DNA from: a virus | Taxonomy: Duplodnaviria; Caudoviricetes | IMG/VR virus record: IMGVR_UViG_3300020047_007062 | Location: 9,590-73,589 of that record | Length of the DNA stretch: 64,000 bases | Direction: 5' to 3' (one strand) | Shown here: in pieces, positions 44,727 through 45,178 of the stretch | Layout of the letters: each line of letters begins with the position of its first letter | Numbering within the stretch: the stretch's first letter is position 1 | The notes under the pieces: model-generated | What the model was told of the DNA's origin: nothing | Database searches by the model: none | Seen by the model: the letters and a program-made list of their open reading frames with translations, nothing else | Made by a program: the position numbers and the translations under genes

Positions 44727-44797
44727 GTGGATAGGCGCAAGTGTTAGTGTATTGATTTACAGTTGTTTTGTCATATTAAGTTGCGTGTATCCGCGAG

Positions 44798-45178
44798 TTG
44801 TGTGCAAGGCTACTTGTCCTTACTTTCAAGTGGTCGGACGGGAATTGATTTACTTTTCATAACACCATCCCAATCACCCCATTCAACACCTCCACGATAT
44901 TCAATAAAAAGACTACCATCTTCATCTACTCTGCCAATTTTTTCTACAATATGTTTAGCAAACATTTCTTTTAGCTGTTCAACTTGGTAATCAGAAAATA
45001 CCCTTAAAGTAATTTGGTTTGCCATCTTATTTTATTTTACACGCCCTGCACACAACAAAAGGCTTGCTGCAAGTAGGGCTTGACGTTAATAATTTGGCAG
45101 ACGAATAATTTGTGAACTTATGTTCCTTGCTCGGCGGTAGTGCTGCCAATTCCCTACCTGCAAAGCAAGCCCCGAACG
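44798..45178. mobile_element. integron-like gene cassette A
   Basis: G|TTGTGTGCA (44797-44806) is the exact reverse complement of TGCACACAAC (45047-45056); arms 45061-45078 and 45152-45171 with a 2-nt bulge; G|TTACGA at 45178. Confidence 0.75.
44810..45025 (-). CDS. cassette-borne hypothetical protein
   Basis: 71-aa ORF filling the space between the two 10-bp boxes. Confidence 0.7.
   Translation of the reverse strand: MANQITLRVFSDYQVEQLKEMFAKHIVEKIGRVDEDGSLFIEYRGGVEWGDWDGVMKSKSIPVRPLESKDK

Follow-up and report, generated by a model that had tools for sequence, protein, structure and literature searches.

The closest described relatives of the locus analysed here are integrons and the isolated cassettes found away from them. 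In integrons, the integrase IntI requires its specific insertion for acting on folded attC sites, and this insertion is held essential to integron function (PMC8138268). Isolated cassettes (SALINs) and attG sites are also known, where a trans-acting enzyme works on double-stranded targets (Loot et al., bioRxiv 10.1101/2022.09.11.507474). In virulent phages, including Polaribacter phage P12002L with two methyltransferase cassettes, CALINs have been described; their attC were tested against attI1 in E. coli and found functional, and the authors suggest that the cassettes entered the phages by recombination of the illegitimate or homologous kind (Qi et al. 2023, PMC9892861). For the Flavobacterium phages of the genus Muminvirus, one methyltransferase was linked to plating efficiency, in a paper that nowhere mentions integrons or an integrase (Nilsson et al. 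2020, PMC7077304). Searches of the open-access literature turned up no account of the Bacteroidota system discussed below, nor of orphan attI docking sites in phages, and the preliminary description of the present DNA likewise knew of no such system.

The window, that is, the whole stretch of 64,000 nt that was analysed, belongs to the IMG/VR record IMGVR_UViG_3300020047_007062. The record is linear, 73,589 nt long and 77% complete (CheckV), and it is from a tailed phage, with terminase, portal, virion proteins and DnaB present. Read from the attC type, its host would be a member of Bacteroidota. Two similar sites stand in the window next to phage genes:

44730..44799, + strand: docking site A, attI-like, with a left box, a 31-nt AT-rich spacer and a core ending G|TT (G = 44797).
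39109..39178, + strand: docking site B, attI-like, same layout (G = 39176), scoring +24.1 bits on the attI side.
44175..44726, + strand: 183-aa phage gene directly before site A, a fixed upstream neighbour used as bait for relatives.
37465..39024: phage-encoded GroEL-like chaperonin.

Both sites are 70 nt long with a spacer of 31 nt. They match at 48/70 positions overall and at 19/22 positions in the 22-nt core, while the next-best ungapped match in the 73.6-kb record reaches 34/70 and the best match in 100 shuffled genomes 41/70, below the value for A and B. There is no third copy of the 70-nt element in the 73,589-nt record. Within the element, the core repeats the left box imperfectly in inverted orientation, the folding is unremarkable against shuffles (z -0.1 to -1.6), and the AAC box at the position expected for R'' of an attC is absent in both sites. 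The coordinates and counts in the preliminary description are confirmed, and so are the inverted repeat and the missing outer box in both copies. It had also reported no tyrosine recombinase in the window; none was found in the whole 73.6-kb record, which covers 77% of the genome, either. The genes adjoining the sites are groEL at one and a phage ORF at the other, and no intI is next to either.

The G|TT of each site opens a cassette, and the features of the two cassettes are as follows:

44798..45178, + strand: cassette A, 381 nt, beginning with the TT of site A and ending with the G in the G|TT of its attC, its start being the reverse complement of the R'' box at 45047-45056.
44810..45025, - strand: cargo ORF of cassette A, 71 aa, antisense to the sites, no known family.
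45048..45180, + strand: attC-like hairpin A, with extra bases on the R' arm, ending CG|TT, -11.3 bits (attC side).
39177..39454, + strand: cassette B, 278 nt, with 10-nt complementary ends.
39177..39389, - strand: cargo ORF of cassette B, 70 aa, starting inside the attC loop and stopping at the junction, no family.
39326..39456, + strand: attC-like hairpin B, z -3.2 on the bottom strand, -26.3 bits (attC side).

Each cassette opens with 9-10 nt that match, in reverse complement, the R'' box of a hairpin standing 150-250 nt downstream of the site. A scan of the record found only these two attC-like hairpins (45048-45180 and 39326-39456), which are 5.6 kb apart; with two single attC and no integrase in the record, they are formally two SALINs. 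In canonical attC the extrahelical bases lie on the R''-L'' arm. Here extra bases are on the R' arm in attC A and in most host attC, and the stem of attC B has no bulge. The ORF of cassette B is co-oriented with the phage operon running into groEL, and that of cassette A opposes both neighbouring genes. Family searches found no function for either cargo ORF, and a BLAST search of cassette A against GenBank phages gave no match.

Is the element an attI-type site, or what is left of an attC? We searched 121 Bacteroidota genomes with the recombinase, of which 33 had close homologues, and the flanks were fetched. The first junctions in these hosts were called by their match to the downstream attC, and they were chosen via the integrase to avoid circularity. 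A scoring model was made from 14 host attI ends against 32 host attC ends. The score of site A is +21.8 bits and that of the corresponding site in a phage relative, L088, is +28.5 bits, where the leave-one-out range is -5.5 to +21.8 for attI and -25.8 to +0.3 for attC. Because the attC ends used for training had been selected for CG, the test was repeated without the last two positions, and the result stands. With the host attI set alone, which is small and loose, site A ranks second of the 2845 GTT sites of the phage and site B falls just outside the top 12. The core also heads rows of attC cassettes in bacterial genomes. In two host loci (L026, L155) a full-length tyrosine recombinase gene ends about 130-140 nt before the core, and in another (L064) the core is upstream of a divergent recombinase gene. 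Several copies per genome are found in the order to which G041 belongs, and Polaribacter sp. BAL334 has the core at 8 scattered loci, with 0 control matches. Host sites often have, at variable distances upstream, a TTGAT-like motif and further copies of the left box. The full 70-bp layout is in no host genome searched; what the hosts share is the core. When metagenomes were searched for the two-box pattern, the matches were host-type sites whose boxes are variably spaced, along with several chance matches, and none had the 70-bp layout.

An alternative to be considered is that the element is a decayed attC, which has lost its outer R'' box and is still a preferred insertion point. The left box and the core are indeed inverted like the arms of an attC, and the end is G|TT. 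However, three independent versions of the element (A, B and L088) keep the same boxes, and all are without R''. Their end is AG|TT rather than CG|TT, they score 17-29 bits on the attI side, and the element of 68 nt folds no better than shuffles, while most attC of this system are about 120 nt. A core heading arrays beside integrases is against a decayed attC as well. We therefore consider this alternative largely refuted by the comparison and give it hardly any probability; the 70-bp element appears to be of attI type and not a cut-off attC.

Some further observations were made in the host genomes. In L003, L042 and L046 (G002), only the C-terminal tail of the recombinase gene is present, followed by a docking core and cassettes. 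The host arrays L141, L142 and L143 have repeated gene-less cassettes of 130 nt, which are attC alone. Bacteroidota-type cassettes also occur on contigs in MAGs labelled Limnohabitans and Alphaproteobacteria (L003, L004, L006, L007), which are probably misbinned. The idea that the host core doubles as a Bacteroidota -7 promoter element was dropped, since it fits only 9 of the 48 matches.

Are cassettes really exchanged at the site? Relatives were sought via the 183-aa gene (44175-44726), and eleven contigs were obtained from Logan and independent ENA assemblies. The relatives are short metagenome contigs of 1-6.5 kb, and in the run comparison parts of the stretch without contig coverage were not counted as absent. 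Their flanks are about 98% identical to the window as far as the junction. In six contigs (L078, L079, L080, L082, L084, L087) the 73 nt after the stop codon are identical to the window, and six different sequences start right after the G|TT. Run X1 gives a seventh cassette at site A and the window itself an eighth, so that at least eight different first cassettes follow the motif. The contig L085 stops exactly at the junction of site A, as expected at a branch, and L098 carries the window's own cassette A. In the more distant L088 (76% protein identity) both boxes are kept, the spacer is different, and yet another cassette follows. The contigs L082, L084 and L088 are long enough to show the far end of the cassette, and in each it is closed by a hairpin and a matching R'' box of its own. 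N6/N4 methyltransferases are encoded in the cassettes of L082 and L078, and methyltransferase motifs are found in those of L080 and L081. On the other side, run X3 has another attC end joined to the downstream flank of the window at 45177, and L082 runs past its attC into sequence unlike that flank. By this comparison, site A is a working docking point, where the neighbouring cassette is replaced at one base. The preliminary description had proposed an attI-like landing pad and dispersed docking sites in the phage, and this proposal gains support from the non-fixed neighbour, the attI-type score and the core at cassette boundaries elsewhere. The element is no truncated attC with a fixed neighbour, and its core recurs in other phages and beside Bacteroidota integrase genes.

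A second branch point is seen at the left end of site A. In L081, a methyltransferase cassette is joined at a G|AT at position 44730, 4 nt past the stop codon of the 183-aa gene, and the contigs L083 and L086 stop at 44730 too. The join in L081 looks like an attG-like secondary join and fits the GWT consensus. Directly after cassette A there is an HNH endonuclease gene (45251-45688), which is present or absent among strains: a contig of run X3 skips 45261-45684.

At site B the evidence is of two kinds, turnover of the cassette and later arrival of the site. Run X1 departs from the window at 39179 into another cassette, and a contig of run X3 departs at the same position and rejoins at 39442, with 210 other bases between. 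In two contigs (L094, L096) the locus is empty, and the stop of the next gene follows directly on the groEL leader; in L091-L093 and L097 ordinary genes are found there. Because the locus is empty in the former and filled by ordinary genes in the latter, 39077-39454 is a single insert in a variable place next to groEL, and it comprises the site, the cassette and about 32 extra bases. Site B is then the younger one and arrived later than site A. The extra bases are:

39077..39108, + strand: extra sequence that arrived with site B, a short frame whose stop abuts the left box, absent from L094 and L096.

The stop abutting the left box resembles the integrase stop at the host locus L116. It is possible that 39077-39108 is the tail of an integrase gene, as suggested by a weak and loose likeness to host integrase C-ends; this presumed dead tail is without the conserved proline.

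What about more distant phages? In a distant relative whose version of the 183-aa gene is 47% identical, no site directly follows that gene, and in another, whose groEL is 47% identical, the site is absent beside groEL. The sole other close protein to the GroEL-like chaperonin is 47% identical and comes from a phage with a similar glycosyltransferase cluster. In L178 (3505-3543), one gene past the homologue of the 183-aa gene, a short attI-type core and a cassette-like start follow a RuvC-like gene. This core points to the use of docking sites at further loci in the phage group.

Another explanation for the turnover is homologous or micro-homologous exchange between phages, driven by phage recombination proteins and taking place where boundary sequences are conserved, or off-target attG insertion, with the motif being a relic or a protein-binding site. 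The phage is certainly mosaic at both loci, as seen from the genes swapped at locus B and from the genes upstream of 44175, which differ among relatives, and the G|AT join in L081 is what attG insertion would give (bioRxiv 10.1101/2022.09.11.507474). But even with homologous exchange, each of the at least eight cassettes still needs a prior site-specific insertion at one base, and the downstream flanks differ between strains (L082). As for attG, such sites are short and occur in large numbers, unlike the conserved 70-bp element found here, which has the host attI core. Exchange or attG insertion is thus quite improbable as the source of the turnover. By comparison of co-circulating strains, cassettes with attC hairpins are gained and replaced exactly at the terminal G|TT, at both copies of the element.

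There is a further question of concern, where do the cassettes come from? All 8 readable cassettes of this phage group (8/8) have their genes antisense to the sites, while the cassettes of the hosts are 25 sense and 4 antisense. Cassette B has an attC that shares 76% identity with attC beside methyltransferase genes in cultured Flavobacterium phages (Muminvirus). Because the cassettes are antisense, where those of hosts are mostly sense, and attC B matches the attC of Flavobacterium phages, the pool is of phage type, which corrects the earlier proposal of captured host integron cassettes. Strict motif scans of IMG/VR gave two chance matches or none, and nothing real, and protein-seeded scans for sister phages found none. 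A relaxed scan with the core gave 12 matches, of which 11 are site-like, from about six unrelated lineages. The first cassettes in these lineages are again antisense in all seven that are readable (7/7). The first cassette of L183 and L187 is the second cassette of L185 and L192, as predicted if new cassettes enter at an attI. Other phages carry rows of cassettes behind the same core, and, together with L082 continuing past its attC, these rows show that the cassettes need not be single, as had been thought at first.

An unannotated row was also noticed in Muminvirus filifjonk MN812206.1 (L180:1650-9750), with 12 attC cassettes, five methyltransferase genes and no integrase. This is a complete, cultured virulent phage of 38 kb, suited as an experimental model, and the genes of the row are antisense.

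Then which enzyme would act on the site? By sequence comparison, the core is the same as the one that heads cassette rows, in hosts and in other phages, and that adjoins the genes for a family of tyrosine recombinases in Bacteroidota. The host enzyme beside the core in L026 reaches 201 bits with TIGR02249, against a cut-off of 265, and the profile positions 178-239 are skipped. It is about 43 residues shorter than VchIntIA (2A3V) at the IntI insertion. The enzyme beside the host sites, being without the IntI-specific insertion, is not IntI, the enzyme first named for the phage, and its link to the phage site is inferred. A recombinase supplied in trans, as the preliminary description had it, is likely. 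No recombinase is found in the record or in five other site-bearing viral records, all fragments, one of them 88% complete; with about a quarter of the genome missing, the proposal stands as likely only.

It is this missing quarter that leaves room for a different source, in which the docking site is the same and the recombinase comes from the unseen part of this phage or from a co-infecting phage, making a dispersed phage integron. The cargo pool of phage type, with its antisense genes, fits such a source as well. However, the 73.6 kb at hand and the five other records are without the gene, the complete 38-kb Muminvirus with 12 attC has no match to PF00589, and close homologues of the enzyme are found in 33 of the 121 Bacteroidota genomes sampled. 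We consider a phage-encoded recombinase unlikely, though more probable than either of the two alternatives above.

Taken together, we are fairly confident that the element is an orphan attI-type site of a Bacteroidota integron-like system kept in the phage, with the following mechanism. A recombinase of the family without the IntI insertion would bind the core as double-stranded DNA and use the inverted left box as an accessory site. The excised circular cassette would be joined to the site through its folded attC. The enzyme would come from the infected cell or from a co-resident element, with no gene adjoining the site. The cassettes would be drawn from a pool common to Bacteroidota phages, with genes antisense to the sites; in this orientation, the cargo would rely for its expression on the transcription of the phage or on signals in the attC loop, with no integron promoter involved. 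Rapid exchange of DNA methyltransferases and other small genes against host restriction is the likely benefit. As for site B, it would have come later, as the single insert 39077-39454. With somewhat less confidence, and only a little better than evenly balanced, we suggest that the whole is a split integron. The host would hold the enzyme, a recombinase without the IntI insertion; the phage would hold a stand-alone attI module that can be acquired at new loci; and other phages would hold the antisense counter-defence cargo.

Several other features of the record should be noticed. At 1238-4090 of the window, 31-nt inverted repeats flank DNA of lower GC, with a transposase-like ORF inside (1991-2821); this is read as an insertion sequence carried by the phage and points to DNA exchange with a host. 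An inverted repeat of 124 nt with 98% identity is present at 57305-57428 and 63877-64000, the latter reaching the record end, and it may be an assembly end or an invertible segment. A direct repeat of 199 nt (71%) lies within a 721-aa ORF, at 41996-42194 and 42344-42542. This repeat region (41996-42542) and the stretch 40445-41085 are variable among strains. An Rfam search gave no match near the gathering score. A sigma-70 promoter scan gave 3 sites against 1.6 by chance, with a model that is uninformative for Bacteroidota.

Why does such a site matter? The gain of orphan methyltransferases and small counter-defence genes by lytic phages is usually credited to illegitimate or homologous recombination. 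The site offers a precise and reusable entry point instead, and it explains how cassette rows in phages without integrase stay active. What is more, attC-like hairpins seem to be handled here by a recombinase that lacks the IntI insertion, though this insertion is held essential for integrons. The parts are short and defined (a 70-bp site, a 120-bp attC and an enzyme of roughly 290-420 aa), and cultured phage-host pairs of Flavobacterium with the same attC type exist.

How does the locus compare with the systems known so far? Of the phage CALINs (PMC9892861) it shares attC cassettes without integrase, the methyltransferase cargo and, in one case, a Bacteroidota host. The difference is that no orphan phage attI is named in the available part of that paper, while a dedicated site with one-base turnover in natural populations is found here. 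With SALINs and attG it shares isolated cassettes far from any integrase. However, attG sites are short (a GWT core, about 18 nt), very numerous and off-target, whereas the 70-bp element is conserved and reused by many cassettes; the L081 join is the sole one of attG appearance. The delta-attI cassettes of mobile integrons are similar in that pieces of attI away from the integrase still recombine; those close cassettes inside class 1/2 arrays, while the phage site heads its cassette and another enzyme family is inferred for it (PMC12901181). Muminvirus vB_FspS is also alike: it is virulent, has no integrase and carries 12 attC cassettes, which are antisense and in which methyltransferases are abundant. 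But these form one long array headed only by a short AG|TT end, with no 70-bp element.

The comparison with integrons themselves is the closest. As in an integron attI, the site is non-folding and ends G|TT, where newcomers enter and push older cassettes down. The cassette ends are complementary R' and R'' boxes around an attC-like hairpin, and extra boxes upstream of the core are loosely like DR1/DR2 of the class 1 attI1. The differences are as follows. The phage site is without an adjacent integrase gene and is present in two scattered copies. The cognate-looking recombinase is without the IntI insertion, and its gene usually points towards the array. The attC here is about 120 nt and may also differ in the placement of the extra bases, which lie on the R' arm in attC A. 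Integron cassette genes are mostly sense and read from the Pc promoter, while those in the phage are reversed. The phage site therefore seems to work like an integron attI and yet to fall outside integrons, having no adjacent intI, no IntI insertion in the enzyme and reversed genes. What this locus adds to the known systems is direct population evidence for an orphan phage site in use.
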